Assembly (NCBI GenBank): GCA_017993335.1
Contig: JAGOMX010000003.1
Location: forward strand, 790 to 64,789
Source: Alphaproteobacteria bacterium
Lineage (GTDB): Bacteria; Pseudomonadota; Alphaproteobacteria; JAGOMX01
Direction: 5' to 3'
DNA length: 64,000 bases
Position numbers and translations under genes: made by a program. Of this stretch, positions 1-40,562 are shown one piece after another. The notes below the pieces were generated by a model. That model was not told the DNA's origin and did not search any database. It worked only from the letters and a program-made list of their open reading frames with translations. The stretch's first letter is position 1. Each line of letters starts with the position of its first letter.

Positions 1-240
1 CAAGAAAGAGAGCTTGCCAGAATACATGCGAAGATTTATACAACACAAGAAGCTATGCATATATTGCAGGCAGAGTGGTCGTATCTCAATGAGCCTGGTC
101 GTTTGCAAAAACTGGCCTCTAAACATTTGAAGTTGGCCCCGTCGGATTCGGTGCAGTTGGTTGCGTATAAAAACTTGGATGATTTAACTCGTCCTCACAA
201 GGGAACTGCCTTCGGCGAGCTGCAACCTGTTAAGTATTAA
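1..240 (+). CDS. ftsL: Cell division protein FtsL, C-terminal part; the ORF runs in frame from before the window start
   Basis: The frame is open from nt 1 (QERELARIHAKIYTTQEAMHILQAEWSYLNEPGRLQKLASKHL...). The WxYLNxPxRLxxLAxKHLxL motif is typical of alphaproteobacterial FtsL. It lies immediately upstream of ftsI, as in the dcw cluster. Confidence 0.5.
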   Translation, partial: QERELARIHAKIYTTQEAMHILQAEWSYLNEPGRLQKLASKHLKLAPSDSVQLVAYKNLDDLTRPHKGTAFGELQPVKY

Positions 241-259
241 AAAGTAGGATATTTTAGCC

Positions 260-1972
260 TTGTCGTTTCATCCCAAGGTCCTCAATCTTTTTAAAGTGGG
301 GCCGGAAAATCATAGTATTGTTCGCCAGGCCTTAGACATTGCAAAGACACGTCTGCTGTTGGCGATGGCGGGGATGGTATTGGGTTTTGCTCTGGTGACC
401 ATAAAATTAGTTACGGTTACGTGTTTTCATGGTGGACAAGACTATGCCTCTAACGGAAATCAGCATAATGGCTTAAATATGGGGCGTGCTACCTTTAAGG
501 ATCGTAACGGAGAAGTTTTAGCCACAACGATTGCTACGTCATCCTTGTATGCCAATCCCAAAAAAATATTGAATCCTAAGGAGGTCGTCTCCAAGCTTAA
601 AACTGTTTTCCCTCATCTGAATGAGAAGGATGTGCTGGAAAAATTGAAAAGTGATAAGACTTTCTTGTGGATTGTGCGGCATTTGACGCCGCAGCAAAAA
701 TCCGCGGTCATGCGTTTAGGGCAACCGGGTTTAGAGTTCATGCGGGATACGAAAAGGGTGTATCCTTTTGGTGAATTATTATCCCATGCGGTAGGTTTCG
801 TGGACGTGGACAATACAGGTATATCCGGTCTTGAAAAGGGTATGGATCAGCATCTGCGCAGCACTAACGAGCCTGTGGAGTTGTCTTTAGATATACGACT
901 GCAGCATATTTTATTCGATGAACTGCATAAAACAGTCCATAATTTTTCTGCAGAAGGCGGCAGCACGATGATGATGGATATCGTCACCGGCGAAATTTTA
1001 GCGATGGTTTCTTTGCCTGACTTTGATCCAAATAAACCGGTTATTGAAAACCCACAGGCCTTATTTAATCGTAACACGCTAGGCGTTTATGAAATGGGGT
1101 CTTCCATGAAGATTATCAATACGGCTTTAGCGTTACAATCAGGGATAGCGACCATTGAAACAAAATTTGATGCCACGCAGCCCCTGAAGGTTGGTCGGCA
1201 TTTTGTCACCGACTATCATGCCAAGAATACATGGTTAACGGTGGAAGAAATATTTGTGTACTCTTCGAACATCGGCTCTGCGCGGATGGCTTTAAAGGCG
1301 GGTAGCGATAGGCAGAAAAGTTTTATGAAGGAAATAGGATTCTTGCATTCCCAGAAACTAGAAATTCCTGAATTAGCACAACCGCTCGTGCCAATGACGT
1401 GGAAAGAAGCAAATACCATAACGATTTCCTATGGTTATGGTTTATCCGTTTCGCCGTTACATACATCGGTGGCTATTGCGGGTATTGTGAATGAGGGAAA
1501 AATGGTGGAGCAGCCAACCCTTTTAAAACGTAGCCCACAAGAAACAAAATATAAACAGATTGTGAGTTCCGATGTATCTGCAAAAGTTTTAAACTTAATG
1601 CAACAAAGTGTTATCCGTGGAACGAGCCGTAAGGGTTCTGTGCCGGGTATTATGGTCGGGGGCAAAACTGGAACCGCAAACCAGAGGCGTAGCCATGGGC
1701 GGGGGTATATCGCGAATGCGGTGAATACAACATTTGTTTGTGTTTTCCCAGAAAAACCCAAGTATCTGGTCTTTGTTATGTTGGATGGACCAAAAGCTAA
1801 AAAAGAGACTTTTGGTTTTAATACAGCAGGCTGGAATGCGGCACCTTTAGCCTCGAGCATTATTCAAAGGGCAGCCCCTATTTTAGGTGTGTTTCCTGAA
1901 TTAGAAAAACCGAATGAATCCAGTGGCGCAGCCACTTTGCGTCCCGCAGTATTGAAAGATAAACATGAATAA
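260..1972 (+). CDS. ftsI: Peptidoglycan D,D-transpeptidase FtsI (PBP3)
   Basis: 570 aa with an N-terminal TM helix, a PBP dimerisation domain and a transpeptidase domain (KTGTA motif). First gene of the dcw block before murE. Confidence 0.9.
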   Translation: MSFHPKVLNLFKVGPENHSIVRQALDIAKTRLLLAMAGMVLGFALVTIKLVTVTCFHGGQDYASNGNQHNGLNMGRATFKDRNGEVLATTIATSSLYANPKKILNPKEVVSKLKTVFPHLNEKDVLEKLKSDKTFLWIVRHLTPQQKSAVMRLGQPGLEFMRDTKRVYPFGELLSHAVGFVDVDNTGISGLEKGMDQHLRSTNEPVELSLDIRLQHILFDELHKTVHNFSAEGGSTMMMDIVTGEILAMVSLPDFDPNKPVIENPQALFNRNTLGVYEMGSSMKIINTALALQSGIATIETKFDATQPLKVGRHFVTDYHAKNTWLTVEEIFVYSSNIGSARMALKAGSDRQKSFMKEIGFLHSQKLEIPELAQPLVPMTWKEANTITISYGYGLSVSPLHTSVAIAGIVNEGKMVEQPTLLKRSPQETKYKQIVSSDVSAKVLNLMQQSVIRGTSRKGSVPGIMVGGKTGTANQRRSHGRGYIANAVNTTFVCVFPEKPKYLVFVMLDGPKAKKETFGFNTAGWNAAPLASSIIQRAAPILGVFPELEKPNESSGAATLRPAVLKDKHE

Positions 1973-3425
1973 GTCTGATGTTTTGCAGAGTTTTGTGAGT
2001 CAAAATTGTTTTAGTGAGGAGGCAGATTGGGTTGTCACTCGCGTGGTTACGGATTCCAATCAGGCTGTTCCAGACTCTATTTTTGTTGCGCTGCCATCGG
2101 TATGGGAGGGCAAAACAGGGGGTGAGGCTTATATATCGCAAGCTATAAAGAATGGGGCTCGCCTGATTATAACGAAAGAAAATCCCCCACAAAAACGACA
2201 AGACCTGACTTGGATACAAGTGGAGAATCCACACAAAGTATTGTCGCAGTTGGCGAGAAAATTCTATCCAGAACAACCAGAAACAGTTGTTGCGGTTACG
2301 GGGACCAATGGTAAATCATCCATTGTTGATTTCATTTTTCAGATTTGGCAAACCAGCGGATTTTTATCGGCGCGCATGGGGACTATAGGTGTAAAAGATA
2401 GTCTAGGCAGTCTATATGAAGAAACAGCTGGCATGACCACACCGGATGCGGTGACAATTCATCGCACGTTGCAGCGCTTGAAGCAAAATAAAATACAGTA
2501 TTTAGCGATGGAATCTTCCAGTCATGCATTGGTGCAGCATCGTATGGATAGCGTGCAAATAAAATTGGCTTCTTTTACCAATTTAACCCATGAACATTTA
2601 GATTATCATCAGGATATACGCACCTATTTTGCGGCGAAGACTCGTTTGTTTGAAGATATTTTACCGCAAGACGCCATAGCGATTGTGAATGTGGATGATG
2701 CTTATGGCCGGGAATTGGTTGCAAAACTTAAGGCACAATCGAGGACTGTCGTAACCTATGGCGAGACCTCTGCGGATTTTATGTTTACGGTTAAAAATAT
2801 ACACAGCCATGGTATGGATGTTGAGCTTAACATTTACGGGAGATCGTATTCATTGCTCTTTCCCCTAATTGGTAGTTTTCAGATCTCTAATGCGGTTTGC
2901 GCTGTGGCGAATGCGGTGCATTCAGGTGTGGAGGAAAAAGCGGCAGTGCTAGCTCTTGAACATTTACAATCGGTGTCGGGTCGTTTGCAAAAAGTCAGTG
3001 ATCAGGTTTATGTGGATTATGCCCATACCCCAGATGCCTTATCTACAGCTTTAAAAGCTTTGCGCGGTCATTGCTCGGGGGCTTTGTCTGTCGTCTTTGG
3101 CTGTGGGGGAAACCGGGATCCTTTCAAAAGGCCATTGATGGGAAAAATAGCCGCGGAGCTGGCAGATAGAGTTTACATCACCGATGATAATCCCCGGTTT
3201 GAAGACCCAGTCCTCATACGGCAGCAAATTATTGAGGCCTGTCCTGGTGCTTTTAATTTTTCCTCTAGAAAATTAGCTATATATCAAGCTATACAAGACT
3301 TAAGCACTGGTGATATGTTGTTAATTGCCGGTAAAGGGCATGAAACGGGGCAAATTGTTGGCGATGTGACGGAGCCTTTTAACGATACGGATGTGGCGCG
3401 CGAAGCTTTAAGAGAGGATAAATGA
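1965..3425 (+). CDS. murE: UDP-N-acetylmuramoyl-L-alanyl-D-glutamate--2,6-diaminopimelate ligase
   Basis: 486 aa Mur ligase with the GTNGKSS P-loop and a DNPR motif. dcw position between ftsI and murF; overlaps ftsI by 8 nt. Confidence 0.9.
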   Translation: MNKSDVLQSFVSQNCFSEEADWVVTRVVTDSNQAVPDSIFVALPSVWEGKTGGEAYISQAIKNGARLIITKENPPQKRQDLTWIQVENPHKVLSQLARKFYPEQPETVVAVTGTNGKSSIVDFIFQIWQTSGFLSARMGTIGVKDSLGSLYEETAGMTTPDAVTIHRTLQRLKQNKIQYLAMESSSHALVQHRMDSVQIKLASFTNLTHEHLDYHQDIRTYFAAKTRLFEDILPQDAIAIVNVDDAYGRELVAKLKAQSRTVVTYGETSADFMFTVKNIHSHGMDVELNIYGRSYSLLFPLIGSFQISNAVCAVANAVHSGVEEKAAVLALEHLQSVSGRLQKVSDQVYVDYAHTPDALSTALKALRGHCSGALSVVFGCGGNRDPFKRPLMGKIAAELADRVYITDDNPRFEDPVLIRQQIIEACPGAFNFSSRKLAIYQAIQDLSTGDMLLIAGKGHETGQIVGDVTEPFNDTDVAREALREDK

Positions 3426-4846
3426 ATAATCTATGGACGGCGGCGCAGATCAATAAACTATTTTCTTGTGCCTTATCGCCAGAATGGTCTGCAAAAGGCG
3501 TTTCGATTGACTCCCGCAGTTTAGTGCCTGGGCAAATCTATGTGGCGCTTAAAGGGGCTAAATTGGATGGTCATGACTTTGTGTCGGCGGCGGTGGCGGC
3601 TGGAGCTAGTGCGGTTATTGTGGAAAAATCTATGGATGTAGCTGTTCCACAAATACTTGTGGAGAATGCTTTAGATGCCTTGCGACTTTTAGCACAATCG
3701 GCTAGATCTGTGACGGAATCTAAGGTGGCGGGGATCACAGGGAGTGTGGGGAAGACGAGTACGAAAGAGGCCTTACTGTTCATTTTGCAAGACCAGGCGG
3801 CAACGTATGCAACGCCTCGTAGTTTTAATAATCATTGGGGGCTGCCGCTATCTGTGGCGAATATGCCTGGGGATGCTGCCTATAGTATTATTGAAATGGG
3901 CATGAATCATCGCGGTGAAATTGCGGGACATACCCAACTTGCCAGGCCGCATGTGGCGTATATCACGAATATAGAAGCGGTGCATTTGGGCAACTTGGGA
4001 TCTATTCAAGCTATCGCGGAGGCAAAATCAGAAATTTTTGAAGGTCTTGTTCCTGGTGGAATTTGTATTCTCAATAGTGATTCCCAGCAATTAGATGTGT
4101 TGGAGGCCGCCGCAAGAAAAGCTAATCCAGCGGAAATCTGGTTCGTGGGGACAACCGCCAAAGCGAATGTCAGATTATATGAATCAGAAGTGTTTTCAGA
4201 TCATCAAATTGTTCATGCGGATATCGCTGGCGTCAAACTTACCTATCGCTTGAATGTTATGGGGCCCCATTGGGTGTTGAATAGCTTAGGGATTTTAGCG
4301 GTCGTAAAAGCTTTAGGCGCGGATGTAGAATTAGCCGCGGCTAAATTACAAGATTTTCAAGCCATAGCAGGACGTGGTCAAACCCATCTGGTGGATTTAA
4401 CCCATCATCAACAGATTATGGTTATTGATGATAGCTATAATGCGGGACCAGTTTCCATGAAGGCGGCGATTCATGTGCTCGGTCAATCCAAGTTGACACC
4501 GCAAAGCAGGCGAATTGCCGTTTTGGGGGACATGTATGAAATTGGACCACAAGAAGTCGAAGAACATGTAAAATTAGCCGAGATTCTGGTGCAACAGAAT
4601 ATCCATTGCGTTTATACCAGTGGAGCTTTGATGAAAAATTTGTATGATGCGCTTCCAGATTCTATGCGGGGTAGGCATGAGGATGATCCTAAAAAGCTTG
4701 CGGATCTTTTGTTAAAAGAAGTTCAGGCTGGCGATATCTATATGGTGAAAGGATCTCGCGGGGGGTATCAAGAAAAAGGGCGCATGTATGCGGTTGTAGA
4801 GGCTTTATTACAGATGCAAAACGGGAAAAAAGAACGTGCTGTATAA
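3422..4846 (+). CDS. murF: UDP-N-acetylmuramoyl-tripeptide--D-alanyl-D-alanine ligase
   Basis: 474 aa Mur ligase ([10 protein letters not shown]). Overlaps murE by 4 nt; dcw order. Confidence 0.9.
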
Positions 4847-5924
4847 CTTATTATTTCCATACTCTAACGAGATTGCCTTTCTAAACGTATTTAAATACAT
4901 AACGTTTCGTACAGGTGGCGCAATTCTGACAGCTCTTTTGATTAGTTTTGTCATTGGTCCTGGCTTTATTCGGTGGTTGAAGAAAAAGCAGAAAGAGGGC
5001 CAGCCTATACGAGATGATGGCCCGGCTAGTCATCTGCTGACGAAGAAGGGGACACCCACTATGGGTGGGGCGCTCATTCTTGCGGCGTTGAGTATATCGA
5101 CGTTGTTGTGGGCTGATTTAACGAATCCCTATATCTGGGTGACCTTGTTTGTCACGCTGGGGTTTGGTGGTCTGGGGGCTTTTGATGATTATTTGAAATT
5201 AACGAAACGATCCTCGAAGGGTTTATCGGGTAAAATGAAGCTTGTGGGGCAGATCGCGATTTCTCTTGTGGCGGCCTATATTATTGTGATTCTTTCTGAA
5301 CCGGATCTGGCGAATAAAATTGCTATTCCTGTTTTTAAAAATACTTTTTTGAATTTGGGGTGGATGTTTATTCCCTGGGCCATTGTGGTGATGATCGGTG
5401 CGTCGAATGCTGTTAACTTAACAGATGGTTTAGATGGTTTGGCGATCGTTCCGGTTATGATAGCGGCAATGTGTTTTGGACTGATTGCTTATTTGGCCGG
5501 AAATATTGTTTTTTCCGGCTATCTGCAACTCAATTATGTGGCCGGTAGCGGTGAGATTGCTATTCTTTGCGGAGCGGTATTGGGCGCTGGTCTTGGGTTC
5601 TTGTGGTTCAATGCCCCGCCAGCTATGGTTTTTATGGGAGATACAGGGTCTCTGGCTGTGGGCGGTATGTTGGGAACGATAAGTGTTATTACGAAACACG
5701 AGTTAGTCTTGGCGGTCGTCGGTGGGCTGTTTGTCATGGAGACGGTATCTGTCATTATACAGGTTGTCTATTTTAAAATGACGGGCCGTCGTGTATTCTT
5801 AATGGCACCGATTCATCATCATTTTGAAAAAAAGGGCTGGGCGGAGCAAACGATTGTTATTCGTTTTTGGATCATAGCGGCCATATTGGCGTTAGTTGGT
5901 CTTTCCACATTGAAGTTGAGGTAA
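4836..5924 (+). CDS. mraY: Phospho-N-acetylmuramoyl-pentapeptide transferase
   Basis: 362 aa polytopic membrane protein with conserved MraY motifs ([24 protein letters not shown]). dcw position. Confidence 0.95.
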
Positions 5925-5928
5925 CCAC

Positions 5929-7362
5929 ATGATTATCGTTGAGAGCTTTGCCGGACAAAATGTCATCGTTTTGGGATTAGGCCGTACGGGAAAAGCAGCG
6001 GCTCGAGCTATCCAGGCGGGTGGCGGAAACGTCTATGCATGGGATGATAATTCATTGCTGCGTACAGAAGCCAGAAATGCCGATATACAAGTTATGGATC
6101 CATTGCGTTTGGATTGGAAAACGATTGCCGTGCTGGTGATGAGCCCTGGAATACCTCATACCTTTCCTGAGCCTCATCCTGTTGCGGCGAAGGCTCGTAA
6201 TGCTGGTGTACCAATTGTTTCAGATGTGGATCTTTTAGGCCGCACGCAGACCGCGGCGAAATATATTGGTATAACGGGAACCAATGGTAAGTCTACGACC
6301 ACATCTCTTATCGGGCATATTTTAAAGAAAACGCATCAAAATGTAGAAGTGGGCGGTAATATTGGGATTCCGTCTTTAACGTTGGAGCCTTTAGACGCGG
6401 ATGGAATCTATGTGCTGGAAATGTCTTCATTCTTAAATGAATTAACCCGATCCATACGTTTTGATGCGGCCGTTTTATTGAATATTACTCCCGACCATAT
6501 TGATCGGCATGGAAGTATGGAGGGGTATGTGGCGGCCAAGGAATTGATATTCCAAAACCAAAAGCCGGGCAGCATTGCCATTGTCGGTATGGACGATGCA
6601 CGCAGTATGCGTATTTATCATCGTTTAAAGAATAACTCACACACAAAAGTTGTCGGCATTTCAGCGCGTAAAGCGATAAAAGGTGGAATTTATTATAAGG
6701 ATGGTCTTTTGATAGATGACGCGTTCTCTCAACAAGCCATAGTTCTGGACGCCCGCAAGGGAACCAAGTTTATCTTGGGTCTGCACTGGCAGAGCGTTTG
6801 TGCGGCCTATGCAGTGGCTCGACATTTTGGTGTGAGTCGTCCGATGATTCTGGAAAGTATGGAAACTTTTGAAGGGATGGATCATCGCCAACAATATATC
6901 GCGACAATTGACGATGTTCTTTATATTAACGATAGCAAGGCGACAAACATGGCTTCCGCGAAGGAAGCTCTAAACACTTTCCAGGATATTTTTTGGATTC
7001 TGGGTGGTCGGATGAAAGGTGAGAGTTTGAGTAGCCTTTCCGATTATTTCCCTAAAGTTAAAAAGGCTTTTTTGATTGGTGAGGCTATTGATTCCTTTGC
7101 GAGCGTATTCACGTCAGCGGGAGTGCCTTATGAAGAATCAGGGGATTTAGAGCAGGCGGTTCTGGACGCACGTCGAGCGGCTCTGTCTTCTGAATGTGCG
7201 AATCCGACTGTTTTGCTCAGTCCTGCCTGCGCGAGTTTTGATCAGTTTGATAACTTCGAAGAACGGGGCAAGTTGTTTTGCAAAGTGGTTCTCGAATTGC
7301 CCGGTTTGCGCCTGCACCGTGAGGATAAAGAGCAAAAAACGTCTTTTCTAGAGGTGATATAA
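5929..7362 (+). CDS. murD: UDP-N-acetylmuramoylalanine--D-glutamate ligase
   Basis: 477 aa with an N-terminal Rossmann region (VLGLGRTG) and the Mur ligase P-loop GTNGKST. dcw position. Confidence 0.9.
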   Translation: MIIVESFAGQNVIVLGLGRTGKAAARAIQAGGGNVYAWDDNSLLRTEARNADIQVMDPLRLDWKTIAVLVMSPGIPHTFPEPHPVAAKARNAGVPIVSDVDLLGRTQTAAKYIGITGTNGKSTTTSLIGHILKKTHQNVEVGGNIGIPSLTLEPLDADGIYVLEMSSFLNELTRSIRFDAAVLLNITPDHIDRHGSMEGYVAAKELIFQNQKPGSIAIVGMDDARSMRIYHRLKNNSHTKVVGISARKAIKGGIYYKDGLLIDDAFSQQAIVLDARKGTKFILGLHWQSVCAAYAVARHFGVSRPMILESMETFEGMDHRQQYIATIDDVLYINDSKATNMASAKEALNTFQDIFWILGGRMKGESLSSLSDYFPKVKKAFLIGEAIDSFASVFTSAGVPYEESGDLEQAVLDARRAALSSECANPTVLLSPACASFDQFDNFEERGKLFCKVVLELPGLRLHREDKEQKTSFLEVI

Positions 7363-8499
7363 ATGTCAACGACAATCTCCCGCAACGACCGAAGTTTAAT
7401 GGGCCAGTGGTGGTGGACGGTAGATCGCTGGTTATTGGGATCTGTTTGTTTGCTTATGGTTTTGGGGTTGTTGATGTCCTTTGCGGCGAGTCCGTCGGTG
7501 GCCAGTACGCTAAATATTAACCCTTATTATTTTGTTATTCGTCATACGGCATATCTGATTCCATCTATGTTATGCCTTGTGGCGGTTTCCTTGTCTAGCC
7601 CACGGAATATCCGAAGAATTGCTTTAATTTTATTTTTATTCAGTGTGGGCCTTGTGTTAATGACATTGTTTTTTGGTGTGGAGATCAAGGGGGCGCGGCG
7701 ATGGATTTCATTTGCTGGCACGTCCATTCAACCGTCGGAGTTATTAAAACCTGGATTTGCGATTATTACGGCATGGATGTTATCTGAAAAAAGGCTATAT
7801 CCAGAATTTCCTGGGGCTTTGGTCAGTTTTCTGGTCTATATTTTTTCTATTAGTTTGCTGTTGATGCAGCCGGACTTGGGTATGGTTGTTTTGCTGACGC
7901 TTGTGTGGTTTTCCCAGTTATTTTTAGCGGGATTGTCTATGGTCTGGGTTTTCATTGCAGGGGGTCTAGGTGTGGGTGGGCTTGGCTTGGCGTATCTGTT
8001 TCTACCTCACGTAACGAAACGTATAGATCAATTTTTCAATGGGGATGGTGGCGATCGTTTTGGGGATAAATATCAAATTACTCAATCACTAGAAGCCTTC
8101 ATGAGTGGTGGTTTCATGGGGCAGGGTCCGGGGGAAGGTGTTGTTAAGCGGTTTATTCCGGACGCGCATGCGGACTTTGTCTTTGCTGTGGCCGCGGAAG
8201 AGTTTGGTTTTATCTTTTGTGCTTTTCTGATTTTTATATTTTTATTTGTGGTTATTCGCAGCCTATTGCGTGTATTTCGGCAGGATAACCTTTTTGCGAT
8301 TTTAGCGGTGGGTGGATTGGTTTTACAGTTTGGGCTGCAAGCTTTAATCAATATTGCCTCTACGTTAAACTTAATTCCGACCAAGGGCATGACCTTGCCA
8401 TTTTTGAGTTATGGGGGGTCCTCTATCCTTACATTAGCCATATCTATGGGTATGGTTTTGGCTTTAACCCGCCATCATTATAGTGGTGAGAGGTCATGA
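7363..8499 (+). CDS. ftsW: Peptidoglycan glycosyltransferase FtsW (SEDS family)
   Basis: 378 aa multi-TM SEDS protein (PDAHADFVFAV and LPTKGMTLPFLSYGGSS motifs). Start codon immediately follows the murD stop. Confidence 0.9.
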   Translation: MSTTISRNDRSLMGQWWWTVDRWLLGSVCLLMVLGLLMSFAASPSVASTLNINPYYFVIRHTAYLIPSMLCLVAVSLSSPRNIRRIALILFLFSVGLVLMTLFFGVEIKGARRWISFAGTSIQPSELLKPGFAIITAWMLSEKRLYPEFPGALVSFLVYIFSISLLLMQPDLGMVVLLTLVWFSQLFLAGLSMVWVFIAGGLGVGGLGLAYLFLPHVTKRIDQFFNGDGGDRFGDKYQITQSLEAFMSGGFMGQGPGEGVVKRFIPDAHADFVFAVAAEEFGFIFCAFLIFIFLFVVIRSLLRVFRQDNLFAILAVGGLVLQFGLQALINIASTLNLIPTKGMTLPFLSYGGSSILTLAISMGMVLALTRHHYSGERS

Positions 8500-9551
8500 C
8501 ACGTTTTCTGTTTACCGCTGGTGGCACGGGTGGTCATATGTTCCCTGCATCCGTAGTTGCAGAAAAATTGATGGGGTTAGGGCATGAAGTACATTTCTTG
8601 ACGGATGTCAGGGGTGCATCGTATTTACCGGATTCTTTACCTTTTACAGCCTTAGATCTGTCGGCATTAGGAAAACGTAAGTGGTGGAGCCTACCTTTGG
8701 TTTTGGGACAGTTGATGGTGGCATGTCTTTATAGTTTGTCCTATTTTATAAGATTTAAACCCGAAAAAGTCGTTGGATTTGGTGGATATGTGACGTTTCC
8801 TGTTTTGCTGATGTGTAAAATATTTGGAGTGCCTTATTATTTACATGAGCAAAACTCTGTTATGGGTAAAGTGAACCGTTGGTTTTCTCGCACCGCCATG
8901 TGCATCATGACGAGTTTTCCGGATACAATCCCCGATACAGGAGAGCTCGTATACACAGGCCTTCCCGTCCGAGAATCTTTACATGCTTTATCGGCAGAAA
9001 AATATGAGACGCCCGCAAAGGAATTTAATGTTCTGGTGATCGGCGGAAGTCAGGGGGCCTCTATCTTTTCTACCACCATTCCGCCTGCATTACGTATGTT
9101 ATCAGAAAGGGTGCCTATCCCCATCCATGTGCATCAACAATGCCGGGCAGGGGATTTGGATTTTGTGGCACAGGCTTATAAAGATTCAAAAATCACGGCG
9201 CATACGGATGTATTTTTTCAGGATATGAAACAAGCTTATAAAAACGCTCACATCGTTATCTGTCGGGCGGGAGCTTCATCTATTGCAGAACTATGTCTGG
9301 TGGGGAAGCCCGCTCTATTGGTGCCCTTTGCAAAGGCAATGGATGATCACCAAACTTTAAATGCGCAATTCATTACCAAAAACCAAGCCGGTTGGTCCAT
9401 GGCTGAGGCAGACTTTACGCCAGAAGTTTTAGTCAATTTGCTGCAGAAACTCATTCAAGATCAAGACCTTTTGATGCAAGCCAGCGTTGCCATGAAAAAA
9501 TTGGGACAACCAGAGGCAACAAACAAAATTGTCAGCCAGGTTACTCGCTAG
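8496..9551 (+). CDS. murG: UDP-GlcNAc:lipid I N-acetylglucosaminyltransferase
   Basis: 351 aa GT28 protein (GGTGGHMFPA N-terminus). Overlaps ftsW by 4 nt. It is the last dcw gene present; murC/murB/ddl/ftsQAZ are absent from the window. Confidence 0.9.
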   Translation: MTRFLFTAGGTGGHMFPASVVAEKLMGLGHEVHFLTDVRGASYLPDSLPFTALDLSALGKRKWWSLPLVLGQLMVACLYSLSYFIRFKPEKVVGFGGYVTFPVLLMCKIFGVPYYLHEQNSVMGKVNRWFSRTAMCIMTSFPDTIPDTGELVYTGLPVRESLHALSAEKYETPAKEFNVLVIGGSQGASIFSTTIPPALRMLSERVPIPIHVHQQCRAGDLDFVAQAYKDSKITAHTDVFFQDMKQAYKNAHIVICRAGASSIAELCLVGKPALLVPFAKAMDDHQTLNAQFITKNQAGWSMAEADFTPEVLVNLLQKLIQDQDLLMQASVAMKKLGQPEATNKIVSQVTR

Positions 9552-10542
9552 ATGAATCGCCAACGCGTCTTTTTTTCCAATCGGACGTAGCGCTTAGGGT
9601 CTTTTCCATGGTAGACGCATTATCTTTTAGTATGGATATACCGTCTTTATGCGTCAGGTCTTCCGGAAGGGTGCTAACGTTGTTATGGCGAATATCAAGA
9701 AATTGTAAAGCGATTAGCCCAGAAAGTTTATCGGATATAAAATAAAGGTGATTGTTGTTAAGGGTGAGAACCCTTAGTTTGAAGGCTTTTATCTCCCCTA
9801 TATAAATCTCTCTGATATGGTTATCGCTGAGACACAGGAACTCCAGAGCAGGCATCATAAATACTCCCGAGGGCAGAAAAGTTAGGCTCGCGGAGCATAT
9901 AAATAATTTCTGCAGGGCCCTCATGCACACAATCCTGTCGGGTATGTTTGGGATTTGATTATGGGATAAATCTAGCTCCCCAAGTTTATCTAAATTCAGA
10001 AGGGCTGGTGGAAATTCTGTTAGATTATTGTTTTTTAAAGTGAGGATCCTTAAGCCCGCCAAGAACTCAAAGCTGGAAATAAGGGAGGCTAACTGATTTT
10101 TATGTAAGTATAAGGTGTGCAGCTTTGTAAGCCTGCTAAATTTAACGGGTATGGTGTGGAGCATATTGTGGCTTATATCGAGATAAATTAAATGAGTAAG
10201 ACTACCGATCTCATTCGGGATGATAGTGATGTAGTTATGAGATACGTCTAGGTATGTTAGCGAAGAAAGCTGACATATGTCTGTGCTCAGGCGACCTCTG
10301 AAGCGATTTTTTGAAAGGATGAGAGTGGTTATGTTCTTAAAGCTGTGAATTTCATGGGGTAGAGTGAGAAGCTCTTTTTCGGATAAATTAACCTCCGTGC
10401 GCTCGGAATCAAGGGTTAGATCTGCCAGCAAATCTGGAACATCAGATGCACATAAAGAATTTATCGTGATCATCCAGATGAACAAAGCAAATATTGTATT
10501 TTTCACATGCATCCCTATGAAAGCCCCTAGCTTAGCCATCAA
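9541..10542 (-). CDS. Secreted leucine-rich-repeat protein (~11 LRRs); eukaryotic-like, candidate effector
   Basis: 333 aa with an N-terminal hydrophobic signal-like segment. It has tandem 23-24 aa LxxLxxLxLxxNxLxxLPxxI repeats, the same type as Ras-suppressor/YopM/Legionella LRR effectors. Convergent with murG. Confidence 0.75.
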   Translation of the reverse strand: MMAKLGAFIGMHVKNTIFALFIWMITINSLCASDVPDLLADLTLDSERTEVNLSEKELLTLPHEIHSFKNITTLILSKNRFRGRLSTDICQLSSLTYLDVSHNYITIIPNEIGSLTHLIYLDISHNMLHTIPVKFSRLTKLHTLYLHKNQLASLISSFEFLAGLRILTLKNNNLTEFPPALLNLDKLGELDLSHNQIPNIPDRIVCMRALQKLFICSASLTFLPSGVFMMPALEFLCLSDNHIREIYIGEIKAFKLRVLTLNNNHLYFISDKLSGLIALQFLDIRHNNVSTLPEDLTHKDGISILKDNASTMEKTLSATSDWKKRRVGDSSSE

Positions 10543-10597
10543 TCATGCCAGGGAAAATCCTCCGGGTCATTACTTTTTTTAAGTTGTCCCCAACAGT

Positions 10598-10924
10598 TTA
10601 GTGAATCACTGCGTGATGAACGGGAATCTTCTTTATTTCATCGGCTAAATTAAGTTCCGCCTCCCAGAGATCATACGTTTGTTGCATGCGCAGCCACATT
10701 ATGGGGCTATTGTTACAAAAACGCCCTAAGCGCAAAGCCATAGACGGGCTTATGGATTGGGATCCATTTAAAATCCTATGTAGTGTTTGACGAGTAATGC
10801 CAAGTTCTTTGGCTGCTGCGCTTACAGACAGGCCTAAATTTGGTAACACATCTTCCTTTAGTATTTGTCCAGGGTGAGTAGGTGCCCTGTCAGGGCGTCT
10901 TTCAACCAAATATTCTTTCTTCAT
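10598..10924 (-). CDS. higA: HigA-family antitoxin (XRE-type HTH)
   Basis: 108 aa. HTH motif LSVSAAAKELGITRQTLHRILNG. Located immediately downstream of a HigB-like toxin gene (the higBA gene order). Confidence 0.8.
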   Translation of the reverse strand: MKKEYLVERRPDRAPTHPGQILKEDVLPNLGLSVSAAAKELGITRQTLHRILNGSQSISPSMALRLGRFCNNSPIMWLRMQQTYDLWEAELNLADEIKKIPVHHAVIH

Positions 10925-10935
10925 TTTTAATCTCC

Positions 10936-11211
10936 TTAGTGGTATTGCTCAAGATCCACAGCCCACGCATCACTATCTTTCCATTCAAAAGTAATGCACC
11001 ATGGCCCGTTGATATGAACCGTATATCTTTTAGGGCTTCCCAGCAGACTATGGAAATTGAACCCAGGGATGTTCATGTCCTCTGGTTTTTCCGCTTGATC
11101 CAGGGCGTCAAGCCTCCGAATGCATCGGGCGATGAGCTTTTGATCAAGTTTAGAAGACTTTCCGGTTATAAATAGGTCTTTAAGTGCCTTGCTGTGAAAA
11201 CTCTTTATCAT
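10936..11211 (-). CDS. higB: HigB-family toxin (RelE/ParE superfamily mRNA interferase)
   Basis: Starts MIKSFHSKALKDLF... and ends ...WAVDLEQYH, closely resembling HigB-2/plasmid-maintenance-killer proteins. I trimmed the start by 5 codons relative to the ORF track to match HigB N-termini. Confidence 0.75.
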   Translation of the reverse strand: MIKSFHSKALKDLFITGKSSKLDQKLIARCIRRLDALDQAEKPEDMNIPGFNFHSLLGSPKRYTVHINGPWCITFEWKDSDAWAVDLEQYH

Positions 11212-11219
11212 GTTTAACT

Positions 11220-11258
11220 GTAACATATAAAGTTACACATGTAAAGCCTTGTTTTACA
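11220..11258. promoter_or_regulatory. Two adjacent inverted repeats in the higBA leader (TGTAAC-N7-GTTACA and TGTAAA-N7-TTTACA); candidate HigA/HigBA operators
   Basis: Perfect 6-bp arms with identical 7-bp spacing, directly upstream of the higB start. Toxin-antitoxin operons are typically autoregulated through such palindromes. Confidence 0.4.
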
Positions 11259-11510
11259 CAGAAGATGATCTCCCAACCATGTAAATTTATTGTGGGGTGG
11301 TTTATTACCAATTTCAGTATGAATGGTTTTTCATTTCAGAACAATTTTTAGCATTTCGACTGTTGGCGAGAACGCAATTTACGTTTACACTGCAAGTGAG
11401 GTAATTTTTGTTTTTTGCCAACTTTACTTAAAGTCGTCGAAAAAATTAGTAGATTGACGTGGAATATATTTTAACATGATTATCAAGATCGAATATACGA
11501 GGAGCACGAA

Positions 11511-12347
11511 ATGACGTACACGGAAAACCAGGGGCCTTTTGTTATTGTATTGGGCAATGAGAAGGGGGGTACAGGTAAATCTACTGTATCTATGCATATT
11601 TTGGTGCATTTAATGCGCATGGGTTTTAGTGTAGGTAGTGTGGACGTGGATGCAAGACAAGGTACATTTACCCGATATTTGGAAAATAGAGAGGCTTACA
11701 GCAAAGCCCACAACATGAATTTGCTAATGCCTCAGCATGTGTCTCTCACCCGTAGCACGCTGGATAGCACCAAAGAAGCCGAAGCCGAAGAACGGGAAAA
11801 AATCCAAAAAGTATACCAGGATTTATCGCACCACGATTTTATCGTGATTGATACACCTGGTAATGATACGTATTTATCTAGGCTGGCGCATTCTTATGCC
11901 AACGTTATTATCACGCCTGTAAATGATAGTTTCATTGACCTGGACGTGTTGATGAAGATAAAGGATTTGGAGAAAAATATGATCTCCCCCAGCCATTATG
12001 CTGAAATGGTGTGGAACCAAAAGAAAGAGCGGTTGATTCGGGATAAGGTAACCATTGACTGGATTGTGGTGCGAAATCGCTTAAGTAATATTGCTTCCCG
12101 GAACAAGGAAGAAATGTGGCGTGTGTTGCAGCTTTTGTCCAAGCGCATTGGTTTTCGTTTGGGCGAGGGGTTTGCGGAACGAGTTATTTTCCGTGAACTC
12201 TTTCTGACGGGAATGACTCTATTGGATATGGAAGATACAGGACAGGCCTTGAAATTGTCCCATATTGCTGCACGCCAGGAATTGCGGAGTTTATTAAATA
12301 TGCTGAACCTGCCTCAACTGGAGGATAAGCTCAAGCTGGCCAGTTAG
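11511..12347 (+). CDS. mipZ: Division-site positioning ATPase MipZ (ParA/MinD superfamily)
   Basis: 278 aa. The deviant Walker A GNEKGGTGKST, then VDxDxRQxT...YLENR and DWIVVRNRL...LAARQELR, follows Caulobacter MipZ almost motif for motif. Good SD (GAGGAG) upstream. Confidence 0.85.
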   Translation: MTYTENQGPFVIVLGNEKGGTGKSTVSMHILVHLMRMGFSVGSVDVDARQGTFTRYLENREAYSKAHNMNLLMPQHVSLTRSTLDSTKEAEAEEREKIQKVYQDLSHHDFIVIDTPGNDTYLSRLAHSYANVIITPVNDSFIDLDVLMKIKDLEKNMISPSHYAEMVWNQKKERLIRDKVTIDWIVVRNRLSNIASRNKEEMWRVLQLLSKRIGFRLGEGFAERVIFRELFLTGMTLLDMEDTGQALKLSHIAARQELRSLLNMLNLPQLEDKLKLAS

Positions 12348-13585: not shown

Positions 13586-15811
13586 TTAAGGCTGAGCGAC
13601 GAAAACATGCTCAATGACGCCTAGGTTGTTTTGTAGTAAGGCTATGCCAGTAGGTGTAAGTTGGTCTAGGCGTATCAGCGTTTCATATTCAAAAGAATAG
13701 TTGAGTCCGTTGATAAAAAGTTCTGTTGGACCCACTTCTATTCCGCTACTGCCCGAAACCTCTTGAGCACCAGGTGAGCTTGGGTTGCCTATAATACCAG
13801 CACTTGTCATTATTGCAGAAAAGACCTGGCCATCTGAGGTAGATCCGAAATTAAATGCGATCTCAGTTCCATAACGCATGCTAAAGAATAAATTGGTCTC
13901 CACATCATTTGGCATGTACCCGAATCCGAGCTCGATGTAAGTATTGCTAGCATCCCCACCTAAAAGAATGCTTTGCAAGAATGACACATCCCCTGGATTA
14001 AGCGTGCCGGTTAGGTTTTCAAAAACTGTCTGTACCATTATGTTATTTAAGTCGCTTATCGCCCTCGCATCGCTATAGGTTTTTGCATCTATTACATTTG
14101 TTACTACATCTGGTGCTGTGCCTTCGGATAAAAAGACATCGCTCAAACGACTTAACGGTGGAGGAACATCCGTGACCGTTAAGGTGAATGTATCCATGGC
14201 GGTTGCGCCGGCTCCATCTGTTACGATCACATCAATCGCATAAGGCGTATCGGCAGCAACCGTTGGGGCCGTTCCTGTAATCACGCCGGTAAAAGAATCG
14301 ATGCTCAACCAAGATGGAACCGAAGACCCCAGTGCATAAGTGAGTACATTACCGGTATCTATATCGGATGCAGCGACAGCAAAACTAATAGCTGTGCCCT
14401 CGTCATAGATTTTATCTGTAACGGCCGTAATAATCGGTGCGTCGTTCGTTCCAACCACGCGCAAAGTCAGGTCTCCTGTGCTTGAAGCGCCATATTCGTC
14501 CATTGCCATAATAGGTACTTGGAGTTCAAGTGTTTGTCCTGCAGCTAAGTAATTGTAGGATGGATGGCTCCGGTCAAAGCTAGCCGTGCCGTTGGGATTA
14601 ATGATCAATCCATCCGGTAAAGGACCCATAGGGGTATAGGTTAAGATAGCGCCATCATCTATATCACTAGCCATAAATGACAAATTAAATGCGAAGACAC
14701 CATCGCCTTCGATGAGTGGTGCAATGAGTGCACTTACGACCACTGGTGCATCGTTGGCGCCCATTATTTCAACTCTGATATTCGCGGTGCTCGTGGCTCC
14801 GTGTTCATCGGTTACCATATATTGGGTGGTAACAATCATCGTCTGACCTTGAGCCAAATGATCGTAAGCGGGGTTTGAAGAATCAAAGGTATAGGTGCCA
14901 TCCGCATGAATGACAATACCAGCTGCGGCTACGCCGACAGCGCTATAGGTGAGTACGGCTCCATCATCCGCATCGCTTGTGGCTGGGATTAGGGTTCCGT
15001 TGACAATGCCACCGCCTTCAAAAAACAATGTTGTGAATACGTTAAGAGCTTTTGGCGCATCGTTGGTGCCCACCAAAGTAATCGTTAAGGCTTTTGTGGC
15101 ATCAACCCCACCATTGCCATCGCTGACAGTAAAGGGAATCGTCAACACCAGGGTAGCGCCAGCGGCTAGATGGTTATAAGAGGTGTGTGTGGCATCAAAA
15201 GTATAGCTGCCATTAGGATTCAGAACAAAACCCGCCACAACTGAACTGGTGCTAAAGGTAAGCGTGTCGCCCACGTTGGGATCTACGGCGACCAACTGGC
15301 CAGAAATGGCTGCATCGCCTTCATTAATGTCGAGGGTAGCATTCACCGCGACAGGTGCCTGATTCACAGGACCCTCAATGACGATCTGAATGTTCTCGAT
15401 GTTCACAACGCGTAAATCTATATAGGAAACATAATCTTGAAAGTTAAAGACCGTCTTTTTATTCCAGGTGCTAAAGGCTGTTAGGGCGGCCTGTAAATCT
15501 GCAGCTTGTTGCGCAGTAACCACTAACCGGATTGTGTCGGAGCCTCTTTCCCCATCGTAAAAATCATAAGTGCAGTTATTAAGGTCTATGTTTTCTGTGA
15601 CTTTATGGATGAATATGTCATTGCCATTACCGCCAAGAATAATGTCATCTCCGCTGCCGCCGTCGATAGTATCACTACCATTGCCCGCAAGAATTAAATC
15701 GCTACCGCCACCACCATTAATGAGGTCATCACCATTGCCCGCTAAAATAATATCAGAGCCCGAACCACCCGTTAACGTATTATCACCATTACCACCAACC
15801 AATATTGCCAT
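13586..15811 (-). CDS. Large secreted RTX-type Ca-binding repeat protein with multiple cadherin-like/VCBS-type domains (putative adhesin)
   Basis: 741 aa. The N-terminus carries ~6 GGxGxDxUx nonapeptide repeats (GGSGSDIILAGNGDDLINGGGGSDLILAGNGSD...). These are followed by ≥5 ~100-aa repeats, each ending ...VxGTNDAP. Confidence 0.8.
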   Translation of the reverse strand: MAILVGGNGDNTLTGGSGSDIILAGNGDDLINGGGGSDLILAGNGSDTIDGGSGDDIILGGNGNDIFIHKVTENIDLNNCTYDFYDGERGSDTIRLVVTAQQAADLQAALTAFSTWNKKTVFNFQDYVSYIDLRVVNIENIQIVIEGPVNQAPVAVNATLDINEGDAAISGQLVAVDPNVGDTLTFSTSSVVAGFVLNPNGSYTFDATHTSYNHLAAGATLVLTIPFTVSDGNGGVDATKALTITLVGTNDAPKALNVFTTLFFEGGGIVNGTLIPATSDADDGAVLTYSAVGVAAAGIVIHADGTYTFDSSNPAYDHLAQGQTMIVTTQYMVTDEHGATSTANIRVEIMGANDAPVVVSALIAPLIEGDGVFAFNLSFMASDIDDGAILTYTPMGPLPDGLIINPNGTASFDRSHPSYNYLAAGQTLELQVPIMAMDEYGASSTGDLTLRVVGTNDAPIITAVTDKIYDEGTAISFAVAASDIDTGNVLTYALGSSVPSWLSIDSFTGVITGTAPTVAADTPYAIDVIVTDGAGATAMDTFTLTVTDVPPPLSRLSDVFLSEGTAPDVVTNVIDAKTYSDARAISDLNNIMVQTVFENLTGTLNPGDVSFLQSILLGGDASNTYIELGFGYMPNDVETNLFFSMRYGTEIAFNFGSTSDGQVFSAIMTSAGIIGNPSSPGAQEVSGSSGIEVGPTELFINGLNYSFEYETLIRLDQLTPTGIALLQNNLGVIEHVFVAQP

Positions 15812-18596: not shown

Positions 18597-18795
18597 ATTA
18601 TTGTGTATAAATTATATTAACACAAATTAATAAATATTACAATGTAATTTACAAATTGCAAATTTTTACTTAACGAATACTTTTGTTTATTTGCTTATGC
18701 AAAATTAGAATAGCGACTATTTCGTGAAAAAAATTGACAGTTTTCTTGACTCTATATACCCTTTGCCATGTTACGAGACCTATTGGAGAATTCAG

Positions 18796-19743
18796 ATGTT
18801 TAAACGTATTACAATGACGACGGGTGTTTTGGGGATGGCGGTGACTTTGACTGGTTGTCCAAGCCAGACGGATTCGGCCTATCAATCCTCTCACCATAGC
18901 TATTATTCTCATGTTCCCGGGTATGGGCAAAATAGCTATACAAACCACAGTCAGCATTATTCCCAAAATTATTACATGCTCAACCAGAATTTAGCCCATC
19001 AGCAAGAGCAAGAGCGTCAGTATATGAAACAACTGAAGCAAAATAAAAGAATGACAGCGGCACAGAGAAAAATTGCGGAAGACAACTTACGTATGACGCG
19101 CGTTCAATTAGAGGAGAGTCGTGTCCGTTTAGCTGCATTAGAAAACGAAAGACGTGCGCAAGAACAAGCGCAACGGAATCAGAATCAAGCGGCGCGTACC
19201 GCGCAGGTCAATCAAGATGCTCAATTGGCACGCCAGTTACAACAACAAGAAATTCAGGCTTATTATAGGCAGCCGCAACCAGTAGCCAATCCCCATCCTG
19301 CAGCTGCACCTAGTGCGCCGGCTATGCGGGATGTCATGCCTCAGGTACAAGAAAATCCATATCATCGCCCTCCGGCACCAGCGGCAAACCCGGTTCATAA
19401 TCAAGCGTCCGCACCGCCTATGCCTGCTGCACCGCAACCCAATCTGCAAGAAGTTCAGCAAAGGCAAGAAAGGTTGGAGCAAGAAAGACGCGCGCAGCAG
19501 GATTATCAAAGACGGCAAGAAGAGCAAGCCAGGCAACACCAGCAGCAGCTAGCTCAACGTCAGCAAGAGGCCGCAAGAATTGAACAAGAAAATCAAGCCA
19601 GAATGCAACAAGCCATTCAACAGAGCGTAGCTCAACCACAACCACAACCACAAGCAAATGCATTTGAGGCTGAGCTAAAAAAGAAAGTAAAAGAACGTAA
19701 TGAAAGACTAGGCCTCGAGACAGAGCCAGCCGACGTCGAGTAG
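18796..19743 (+). CDS. Gln/Arg/Ala-rich lipoprotein with a long coiled-coil/low-complexity region
   Basis: Start trimmed to MFKRITMTTGVLGMAVTLTGC (signal peptide plus lipobox). The rest is QQ/RR/AQ-rich with heptad-like EQERRAQQ repeats and a poly-Q stretch. No recognisable enzyme domain. Confidence 0.55.
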   Translation: MFKRITMTTGVLGMAVTLTGCPSQTDSAYQSSHHSYYSHVPGYGQNSYTNHSQHYSQNYYMLNQNLAHQQEQERQYMKQLKQNKRMTAAQRKIAEDNLRMTRVQLEESRVRLAALENERRAQEQAQRNQNQAARTAQVNQDAQLARQLQQQEIQAYYRQPQPVANPHPAAAPSAPAMRDVMPQVQENPYHRPPAPAANPVHNQASAPPMPAAPQPNLQEVQQRQERLEQERRAQQDYQRRQEEQARQHQQQLAQRQQEAARIEQENQARMQQAIQQSVAQPQPQPQANAFEAELKKKVKERNERLGLETEPADVE

Positions 19744-19863: not shown

Positions 19864-21393
19864 ATGAACAACCTTTTTATCAACAATATCAAAAAATTTA
19901 GTTCATCTCGGATTTCTGTACAAGGGCAGTCTTATACAGGCGCGCAAATACTACATAAAAAAAACGATGTGGTGAAGTCTCTCTCTGCTTATATTTTCTT
20001 GCCGAATGATCGTGTGGTTCTTGTAGGGGAAGGGGGCTTTGAGTGGCTTTCCTGTTATTTTGCCTTATTAGACTTAAACTTAAAAATTATCCCGATTGAT
20101 GCAGGTTTAGAAACCAAAGTTATTCAAGCAAAAATCAATCAAGCGAGCCCCCGGTATATCCTAAGTCTATCGAAAATGGATTTAGATTTGGGAGGTTTTG
20201 AAGAACATAAACTGGGCGAATCCCTTTATTTTTATCACTGCCAACAGCCGATTGTTCAGCACGAGGATAATGCCTTGATGATGATTGCTTCTTCGGGAAC
20301 GAGTGGCGCAGAAAAATTAATCATGTTGTCGCGGGCAAATATTCAGGCCGTTTTGGATCTTTATGATGAGTTGCTACAAAAAGTCTCCTTTGATTGCGTC
20401 ATGATTTGCCTGCCGATTTCGGCGATATATCCTTTAGCGATTACGTTGGTTTGCTTAAATGCTGGGAAAAAGGTGGTTTTTTGTAATCCTAAAAATGAAA
20501 ACCTCTCTCAAGTGATGATTCGTGAGGAGGTGGAAATTGTTCCCGCCGTTCCTCTAATGCTAGAAATGATTCATAAGGCCATATTTAGTAAAATAGAGAA
20601 TAATCCGTTAAAAAAATGGATTATTCGCCGAATTTTAGATCTCTTTGGATTCATGCGGCGCAGGTGGGCTGTTAATTTAGGGCCTTTTGTCTTAAAGATT
20701 GCGCATAAGCCTTTTGGTGATAAATTGAAATTATTCTTAAGTGGCGGCGCGACATTAAGTGTGAGCACTTTAAAAGATTTTTATAATCTTGGTTTTACCA
20801 TATACGAGGGTTACGGTCTTACGGAAGCGGCTGGATTGGTCACCTATCGCATGGATGATTATTCCGCTTTTGGCACGGTAGGAAAAGTTTCAGATCGTGT
20901 TTTGATGAAAATTTCTGATCAGGATGAAATTCTATTAAAAGGCCCACAGATTTTTTCCGGTTATTTCAATCAACAGAATGAGACCTCATCAGCCTTTGAT
21001 ATGGGGTGGTTTAAAACTGGTGATAAAGGCATGCTTGATGCAAACGGCAATTTGATCGTGAAGGGCCGTATAAAAGATATTATATTTTTATCCGATGAAA
21101 ACGGCTATGCGCCGGAAACTATTGAGGAATACTACAAAGGTATTCCGGGCATAAAAGAATTCATCGTTGTTGGGTGGATTCGAGAAAATACATCTGGTGA
21201 CTATTTAAGTTTAGTCGCTGTTAAAGAAGAGGGTGTGGTCGAATCAAAGGTTTTAGCCGACGTCGAAAGTCATAAAAAACATATTCCTCCACTATTTCAT
21301 ATTCAAGACGTTATTTTTTTGGATGAAATATTGAAAAATAAACTCGGTAAGGTTTGCCGTAACGTTATCAAAGCCAATATAGGGGTAAGGTAA
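19864..21393 (+). CDS. AMP-dependent fatty-acid ligase (acyl-CoA synthetase / FAAL-like), loading enzyme of the NRPS cluster
   Basis: 509 aa with ANL-superfamily cores: SSGTSGAEK (A3), GYGLTEA (A5), FKTGDKG (A7), KGRIKD (A8) and KLGKVCR (A10). Its stop codon is directly followed by the NRPS start. Confidence 0.85.
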   Translation: MNNLFINNIKKFSSSRISVQGQSYTGAQILHKKNDVVKSLSAYIFLPNDRVVLVGEGGFEWLSCYFALLDLNLKIIPIDAGLETKVIQAKINQASPRYILSLSKMDLDLGGFEEHKLGESLYFYHCQQPIVQHEDNALMMIASSGTSGAEKLIMLSRANIQAVLDLYDELLQKVSFDCVMICLPISAIYPLAITLVCLNAGKKVVFCNPKNENLSQVMIREEVEIVPAVPLMLEMIHKAIFSKIENNPLKKWIIRRILDLFGFMRRRWAVNLGPFVLKIAHKPFGDKLKLFLSGGATLSVSTLKDFYNLGFTIYEGYGLTEAAGLVTYRMDDYSAFGTVGKVSDRVLMKISDQDEILLKGPQIFSGYFNQQNETSSAFDMGWFKTGDKGMLDANGNLIVKGRIKDIIFLSDENGYAPETIEEYYKGIPGIKEFIVVGWIRENTSGDYLSLVAVKEEGVVESKVLADVESHKKHIPPLFHIQDVIFLDEILKNKLGKVCRNVIKANIGVR

Positions 21394-27359: not shown

Positions 27360-27374
27360 ATGGGGTTCCTTATT

Positions 27375-35272: not shown

Positions 35273-35456
35273 CAGGGCCTACGCATGAAAATTGCACAAA
35301 AACCTGTCACATCTGCGCAAGGAGTGCGGCGCAGCCGCTACAGTATTGATATATTGCAGAGGCTTCGCCTCACATGTTGCGCTGGACACCTGCCTTCGCA
35401 GGTGTGACAGGTGTGGACGTCACTTCCTCTCTTAAATTTTTCATGCGTAGGCCCTG
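35273..35456. mobile_element. MITE-like non-autonomous element, family A (copy A1), with perfect 19-bp TIRs and a 10-bp target-site duplication
   Basis: TIRs are cagggcctacgcatgaaaa ... ttttcatgcgtaggccctg. The element is flanked by the direct repeat ccgagatatc (35263-35272 and 35457-35466). Its internal sequence is shared with the copies at 62156 and 60902. Confidence 0.7.
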
Positions 35457-40528: not shown

Positions 40529-40562
40529 GGATAAATAGTTCTATTTTACGTGACGTTCCGTT

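Follow-up and report, generated by a model that had tools for sequence, protein, structure and literature searches.

In a 64,000-nucleotide stretch of an alphaproteobacterial genome (assembly GCA_017993335.1, contig JAGOMX010000003.1, positions 790 to 64,789; hereafter the window), the division and cell wall (dcw) cluster stops at murG and is followed by a gene for a leucine-rich repeat (LRR) protein, a higB-higA toxin-antitoxin (TA) pair and mipZ. Here, we compared this locus with related loci, referred to by their labels (L001, P0003 and so on) where they have to be told apart. We found that the dcw cluster is split after murG throughout a clade, and that only the higBA segment is a recent, lineage-specific addition to the murG-mipZ interval. 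Our preferred reading, to which we give a probability of about 0.75, is that an ancestral dcw split, an inherited LRR neighbour and a horizontally acquired higBA pair at a later rearrangement junction together produced the present order. The original prediction, which was made from the window alone, had attributed the break to an insertion carrying the LRR gene and higBA.

The dcw cluster ends at murG throughout a clade

Genes were identified from an open reading frame (ORF) map and from hidden Markov model (HMM) scans against Pfam and NCBIfam with curated cut-offs. The 5′ half of the dcw cluster (55-9551, plus strand, ending at murG) consists of ftsL (55-240, a partial match below threshold at 40.5 against a cut-off of 50), ftsI (260-1972, a family-level match under every equivalog cut-off), murE (1965-3425, 525.7 bits against a cut-off of 476), murF (3422-4846, 372 against 288.6), mraY (4836-5924, 407 against 192), murD (5929-7362, 361 against 212), ftsW (7363-8499, 338 against 337.5) and murG (8496-9551, 261.9 against 250.25). 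These genes keep the canonical order on one strand, with neighbours abutting or overlapping, and all except FtsL and FtsI passed curated equivalog or subfamily cut-offs. The gene identities and coordinates of the original prediction were thus right, with FtsL as a partial and FtsI as a family-level match, and so was its claim that the cluster is truncated after murG. A tblastn search with MurC, FtsA and FtsZ of L007 found none of the three genes in the 64-kb window, its sole match being a Mur-ligase paralogue at 2169-3080, and Pfam scans of the larger ORFs agreed. Moreover, no murC remnant was found between murG and mipZ.

The neighbours of this MurG in sequence space are sparse: the closest is 57% identical, the next group 46-49%, and all others 45% or less. 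In all sampled relatives with a MurG at least 46% identical to that of the window, the dcw cluster stops at murG and has the canonical order inside. The gene that follows murG is always convergent, is unrelated between lineages and often overlaps the murG stop codon. It is a methyltransferase gene, and then an LRR gene, in L001 (MurG 57% identical), an RPE65-family gene in the contig of P0003 (49%) and a trypsin-like gene in L002-L004 (49%), while two genes without a family match follow murG in L005/L006 (46%, GCA_041738135.1). L001 carries the LRR gene only, and neither the LRR gene nor higBA occurs in the contig of P0003, in L002-L004 or in L005/L006. We did not find murC, ftsA or ftsZ within up to 10 kb downstream of murG in the split-bearing relatives.

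In the outgroups L088, L087 and L089 (MurG 42-44% identical), the order murG-murC-murB-ddl-ftsQ-ftsA-ftsZ is intact. A scan of GTDB with the window's MurG as the single query gave no matches, and an alignment-based MurG scan supplied 80 loci of distant Alphaproteobacteria, which serve as background only. Among these ordinary alphaproteobacterial loci, drawn from the GTDB matches listed, murC directly follows murG in 74 of 80 and lies ~1.9 kb downstream of it in one further locus. A neighbour-joining tree of MurG places the split-bearing sequences together in a single clade, whose sister is an intact-cluster lineage. Since the split is common to the clade, while the outgroups and 74 of the 80 background loci are intact, the split is ancestral to a clade, and we infer a single origin in the common ancestor of that clade. 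Because relatives without the LRR gene or higBA share it, the split is also older than the presence of those genes in the window. The proposal that an LRR-higBA insertion broke the cluster is contradicted by these relatives, and a split at this point in relatives lacking both genes is what the original prediction had named beforehand as the sign of an ancestral split and not of an insertion.

Five other loci (L014, L016, L019, L021 and L038) also lack murC after murG. These retain ftsA ~2 kb downstream, and three of the five retain ftsZ too. They come from an animal-rectum metagenome-assembled genome (MAG), two MAGs labelled 'Azospirillum' or Azospirillaceae and two unclassified Alphaproteobacteria, four of the five loci being from MAGs, and they represent a different, independent dcw contraction. 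We also observed a fused MurE-MurF protein of ~942 aa in two of the outgroups (L087, 2932-5760; L089, 2934-5759), with no murD between mraY and ftsW; MurE-MurF chimeras have been described (PMC10214165).

The LRR gene is probably an inherited neighbour of murG

The LRR gene (9541-10542, minus strand) is convergent with murG, and the stop codons of the two genes overlap by 11 nt (9541-9551). Its ORF has 333 codons, a probable start at ATG 10512 and eleven leucine-rich repeats of 23-24 aa; the tandem LxxLxLxxN repeats pass LRR_8 (100.6 bits against a cut-off of 27) and LRR_4 (87.9 bits). The protein is a bare LRR domain of 323-333 aa that ends ~30 aa past the last repeat, and it falls below the cut-offs of all named effector families, the best NCBIfam score being 114 bits against the 600 required for XopAE, with a match in the LRR region only. 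If translation starts at ATG 10512, the N-terminus, read by eye, resembles a Sec signal peptide, MHVKNTIFALFIWMITINSLCA, ending before SD. A single-sequence AlphaFold model was poor, with a pLDDT (predicted local distance difference test) of 51. The product is most likely a Sec-exported, protein-binding solenoid. A Sec-type signal peptide is normally missing from effectors of type III (T3SS), type IV (T4SS) and type VI (T6SS) secretion systems, and its presence here would speak against direct T3SS or T6SS delivery.

The LRR gene of L001 lies at 7110-8105 on the same strand (minus) as that of the window and encodes 331 aa with a signal-peptide-like N-terminus. Only the methyltransferase gene, which has no counterpart in the window, stands between it and murG. 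The two LRR proteins align without gaps over 288 aa (35% identity, E 1e-49), and identity is 36% in register compared with 18-26% when the alignment is shifted by one to three whole repeats. In-register identity above that of the shifted registers indicates that the eleven repeats correspond one to one. The two genes are thus probably orthologous, and an LRR gene probably stood beside murG already in the common ancestor of the window and L001, with vertical inheritance since. This placement in the sister, with the same orientation, speaks against the LRR gene as part of a recent insertion, which had also been proposed. In addition, the GC skew at third codon positions (GC3 skew) of the LRR gene agrees with that of resident minus-strand genes. 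A recent foreign origin of the gene is unlikely, and an older one is possible. Searching a database with the LRR protein gave generic LRR proteins only, which were longer and lower-scoring and aligned in several out-of-register pieces; this search missed even the protein of L001, owing to a word-index limitation, and is uninformative for ortholog tracing.

The methyltransferase gene of L001 (6169-6930, minus strand) is a lineage-specific class I S-adenosylmethionine methyltransferase gene between murG and the LRR gene. Its presence there indicates that the spot downstream of murG takes new genes repeatedly.

The higBA cassette has no counterpart in relatives

A segment of ~0.8 kb (10543-11359), comprising higA, higB and ~130 bp upstream, has no counterpart in relatives. 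It received no matches from L001, L090, L093, L094 or L095 in blastn and tblastn comparisons against the window, and neither higA nor higB was found in any of the 94 loci scanned, related or background, or in L095. The antitoxin gene higA (10598-10924, minus strand) encodes an Xre-type helix-turn-helix protein that scores 106 bits with TIGR02607 (cut-off 47.7) and also matches HTH_3. The toxin gene higB (10936-11226, minus strand) belongs to the RelE/ParE superfamily and scores 42.4 bits with PF05015 (cut-off 27), the match spanning profile positions 1-85 of 91; its true start is likely ATG 11211 (MIKSF...). On the minus strand, higB (11226/11211-10936) precedes higA (10924-10598) with an 11-nt gap. 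By its genes and their order, higBA looks like an intact type II TA module.

HigB is 62-67% identical to RelE/ParE toxins of Rhizobium, Thioclava and Martelella plasmids, and HigA is up to 57% identical to plasmid-borne HigA. MurG of the window is at most 41% identical to that of any alphaproteobacterium among the GTDB species-representative matches listed. Codon usage was compared within strand, because strand skew otherwise makes every minus-strand gene look foreign. In this comparison higB is atypical of minus-strand genes (z = -3.0), while higA is not (+0.2), and higA and higB have a GC3 skew of +0.04 to +0.07, compared with -0.01 to -0.36 in other minus-strand genes. The plasmid-level identity of HigB, its codon use and the GC3 skew together favour horizontal acquisition of higBA, although the genes are short and the statistics weak. 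The view of higBA as an accessory module of mobile type, already part of the original prediction, is borne out by its plasmid homologues and its absence from relatives.

Consensus scanning and direct reading revealed promoter-like hexamers upstream of higB (11217-11245, minus strand; -35 TTTACA, -10 TACAGT). These are overlapped by a perfect palindrome, TGTAAC-N7-GTTACA, at 11219-11237. It is plausible that hexamers and palindrome are a candidate autoregulated higBA promoter and HigA operator, which by count is indistinguishable from chance: three promoter-like sites were found versus 5.8 expected by chance, and counts in the promoter and terminator scan of 9.3-11.7 kb were at or below chance.

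The higBA cassette lies at a synteny breakpoint

Downstream of higBA, mipZ (11511-12347, plus strand) encodes a ParA-like ATPase for division-plane positioning that matches PF09140 over its full length (334.8 bits). MipZ is 80-91% identical to that of relatives and ~60% identical across the class. Its leader/promoter region (11360-11510, plus strand) is conserved as well, with 69% identity over 167 aligned columns to L090 2571-2733 (E 6e-15), and forms the mipZ-side edge of a breakpoint. Homology with L090 restarts at 11360, and the sequence between the start of the LRR gene and 11359 is without a counterpart.

With > for genes on the plus and < for genes on the minus strand, the order in relatives is <RDD <X mipZ> dnaJ-like> (racemase>) SBP3> SDF> <DUF378 <CHMI <AFG1 <polA; the mipZ-polA order is seen in L090, L091, L093, L094 and L095, the last being the one further informative locus that a metagenome scan with MipZ supplied. 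The gene mipZ heads a conserved block of mipZ, dnaJ-like, racemase, SBP3, SDF and DUF378. Gene X has no match in Pfam or NCBIfam. In L090 (1410-2369), L094 (8448-9971) and L093 (7651-9407) it is the gene next upstream of mipZ, and in relatives it is always divergent from mipZ. It is displaced only in the window, where tblastn matches from the 319-aa protein of L090, the 507-aa protein of L094 and the 280/266-aa proteins of L093 locate it at 18724-19743 (plus strand), in the same orientation as mipZ and 7 kb downstream of that gene. After gene X, the window continues with a nonribosomal peptide synthetase (NRPS) island at 19864-26476, RDD and then <CHMI <AFG1 <polA <tssK, so ordered that the CHMI-AFG1-polA block (27021-31162, minus strand) lies beside tssK.

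The contigs L001 and L090 come from the same SRA run; L001 ends at codon 82 of polA, and L090 starts near codon 104. When joined, they read murG> <MTase <LRR polA> AFG1> CHMI> DUF378> ... <mipZ X>, where MTase is the methyltransferase gene. On these joined contigs, the sister's LRR gene abuts polA, and its mipZ is oppositely oriented at a distance of ~7 kb. The neighbour of LRR-higBA in the window is mipZ, with polA 18 kb from the LRR gene; a stretch of 50 bp just upstream of polA is conserved between the window and L001. At least two or three inversions or transpositions are required to interconvert the two orders, and the uniformly positive GC skew, together with the lack of repeats at the breakpoints, indicates that these events are not recent. 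We also considered a single recent inversion of 10.5-31.2 kb relative to the sister and rejected it, given the absence of inverted repeats at its ends, the uniform GC skew and the need for at least two or three events. Rearrangement in the neighbourhood had been foreseen in the original prediction and did occur, but its breakpoint lies between the LRR gene and mipZ and not at the murG end. The higBA cassette lies exactly at this LRR/mipZ synteny breakpoint. It may have come in together with one of the rearrangements, or it may simply have inserted into a permissive joint between genes. The position of mipZ beside the dcw half-cluster is lineage-specific and should not be read as functional linkage.

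Several other genes were noted in this part of the window. A 741-aa RTX/cadherin/VCBS-repeat gene (13586-15811, minus strand) lies between the racemase and SBP3 genes, which are adjacent in L090 and L091. The NRPS island consists of an A-domain protein (19864-21393), a 1480-aa C-A-T-R module (21394-25836) and a phosphopantetheinyl transferase (25829-26476). Its GC content of 0.39-0.42 is below the window mean, and the island, placed between X and RDD, is absent from the mipZ regions of relatives. Abutting polA, a TssK/VasE-like T6SS baseplate gene and two upstream genes occupy 31226-33974 (minus strand); TssK is 76% identical to that of L094 (3176-5958), where the gene order is kept.

Mobile-element signs and base composition at the junction

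The ORFs at 9.5-11.5 kb include no integrase or transposase, the window as a whole has no tRNA, and 9-12 kb gave no Rfam match. Repeats at the junction are short and at chance level only. An imperfect inverted repeat of 13/15 nt lies at the edges of higBA (10583-10597 and 11359-11373, with cores CCAACAGT and ACTGTTGG); since the right arm belongs to the conserved leader of mipZ, this repeat is probably fortuitous. GC skew stays positive throughout, at the junction as in the rest of the window, and the codon use of the flanking genes is uniform. A look at GC and codon-usage deviation across 9.5-11.3 kb had been suggested as a check. Its outcome is mixed: GC content is 0.41-0.44 against a window mean of 0.44, and within-strand codon use is atypical in the LRR gene and higB and not in higA.

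The window does contain several families of dispersed direct and inverted repeats of 70-200 nt, which reach 99% identity, seem to be intergenic and are in part palindromic. All of them lie at 35-62 kb (35363-35458, 40338-40536, 44819-44975, 50227-50383, 51716-51945, 55551-55674, 60900-61085 and 62272-62383), and none was found at the murG-mipZ junction or at the other breakpoints. The link between the break and the repeats of the window, as drawn in the original prediction, is not supported by these positions. In addition, a tandem array with a 66-nt period and ~8 units (52424-52951) lies within overlapping ORFs at 52070-52963.

Weighing the explanations of the locus

According to the preferred reading, the dcw cluster would have split into two sub-clusters right after murG in the common ancestor of the clade. 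The mraZ...murG half would then have persisted as a tight unit, the 3′ end of which came to abut a varying convergent gene in each lineage. In the lineage of the window and its sister, the LRR gene would have been inherited vertically as the neighbour of murG. Later rearrangements of the adjacent mipZ...polA region may have brought mipZ next to the LRR gene, and a ~0.8-kb higB-higA cassette of presumed horizontal origin would now sit at the LRR/mipZ junction. By homology, HigB is predicted to be a ribosome-dependent mRNA endonuclease, and HigA would neutralise HigB and repress the promoter.

Several points weigh against this reading. The MurG tree is a simple neighbour-joining tree with no support values, and the clade is known only from metagenomic contigs, which, with the window included, represent five lineages; the gene surroundings of P0004, P0005, P0006, P0008 and P0011 fall outside the comparison. 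The sister order depends on the inferred join of L001 and L090, which are taken as one genome with complementary pieces of a single polA. A single sister contig underlies the probable orthology of the LRR genes, and genes of this kind readily recombine or converge. The codon usage of the LRR gene is the most atypical of the minus-strand genes (z = -4.1), which could mean a foreign origin. Finally, gain of higBA in the window versus loss in the sister is decided by parsimony only.

We consider it very unlikely that a recent insertion carrying the LRR gene and higBA between murG and murC, or a rearrangement that accompanied it, broke the dcw cluster. The LRR gene and higBA are indeed not dcw genes, the LRR gene and higB are codon-atypical, HigB has close plasmid homologues and the region is rearranged. 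However, the split is common to four related lineages, three of which have neither gene, while L001, the fourth, carries the LRR gene at the equivalent site and lacks higBA. A murC remnant is also missing, as are an integrase, a transposase, a tRNA and a long repeat at this site, the GC skew is uniformly positive over the junction, and the 11-nt overlap of murG with the LRR gene fits a long-settled junction. A chimeric contig, joined wrongly at either the higBA junction or the murG end through an assembly or binning artefact, is the most improbable of the alternatives. The source is a MAG, the window's MurG is not in the contig index, and no independent assembly of the exact junction was seen; against this, five independent assemblies of relatives show the dcw cluster ending at murG. 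Moreover, the overlap of murG with the LRR gene is part of one unbroken sequence, GC content, GC skew and flanking-gene codon use are uniform, and no repeat that could mislead an assembler occurs at 9-12 kb.

The end of the dcw half-cluster might instead be a hotspot for accessory genes, at which the window and L001 acquired their LRR genes independently. The gene after murG does differ in every lineage, the 35% identity between the two LRR proteins is near that of generic LRR matches (32-38%), and the LRR gene has atypical codon use. We nevertheless regard independent acquisition as unlikely, since the two proteins align end to end without gaps, are equal in length and repeat number and share a signal-peptide-like N-terminus, and since the repeat-by-repeat register clearly beats the shifted ones. 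The generic matches are longer, out of register and in several pieces, and the GC3 skew of the LRR gene is like that of resident minus-strand genes. Ancestral presence of higBA at the locus, with loss in the sister and the other relatives, seems to us rather improbable. TA modules are frequently lost, and a single sister contig represents the LRR-side junction; on the other hand, higBA is absent from every related locus examined, and the blocks that flank it are adjacent in no relative, so that there was no ancestral locus for it to occupy. HigB also has far closer relatives among plasmid toxins than the core proteins have in any outgroup.

A broader functional reading, which we think has only a slim chance of being correct, is that the unlinking of murG and murC defines an uncharacterised clade in which the LRR protein is retained for action with the dcw half-operon and mipZ is under shared control. 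If this were true, the exported LRR protein would act on the envelope, on division or on interaction with a host, for example through convergent-transcription coupling with the dcw half-operon, and the chance juxtaposition of mipZ would put two division loci under shared local control. With its T6SS-like genes, RTX adhesins and an NRPS, the clade is possibly host-associated.

Comparison with known systems

Returning to the preferred reading of an ancestral split with later neighbours, the locus reflects ordinary genome evolution in an under-sampled clade and implies no new mechanism or family. Its main value is as a correction: a break near 'foreign-looking' genes invites a story of insertion, and the relatives show that the break is old and its neighbours incidental. 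The murG/murC split can serve as a modest phylogenetic marker of an uncultured alphaproteobacterial clade, and the locus is a tidy example of a TA cassette exactly at a synteny breakpoint.

The MipZ protein of the window is alike over its full length (PF09140) to Caulobacter-type MipZ, a ParA-like inhibitor of FtsZ, and its dcw-adjacent position is found in no relative. The LRR protein resembles the 'eukaryote-like' proteins with 23-residue repeats, such as Xanthomonas XopAE, XopAC and XopL, Leptospira LIC_11051-like proteins and internalins, in its eleven LxxLxLxxNxLxxLPxxI-type repeats and its partial HMM matches. Unlike XopAE, XopAC, XopL, SlrP and SspH2, it has no E3 ligase, Fic, NEL or XL-box domain. 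The higBA pair resembles other HigB-HigA modules in passing the family thresholds, in its toxin-first 'reverse' order, its short gap, its palindrome and its plasmid homologues. It differs from other higBA in being chromosomal and solitary, with no mobile-element genes around, and in lying at a synteny breakpoint.

Splitting of the dcw cluster into sub-clusters with the internal order kept is known for several phyla (PMC8871954). The likeness of the window to the cases in dcw sub-cluster surveys is that the cluster is broken while the order is kept inside the surviving mraZ...murG half (PMC8871954; PMC10214165). In contrast to most Alphaproteobacteria, which have a single dcw cluster, the clade of the window has its break precisely between murG and murC.

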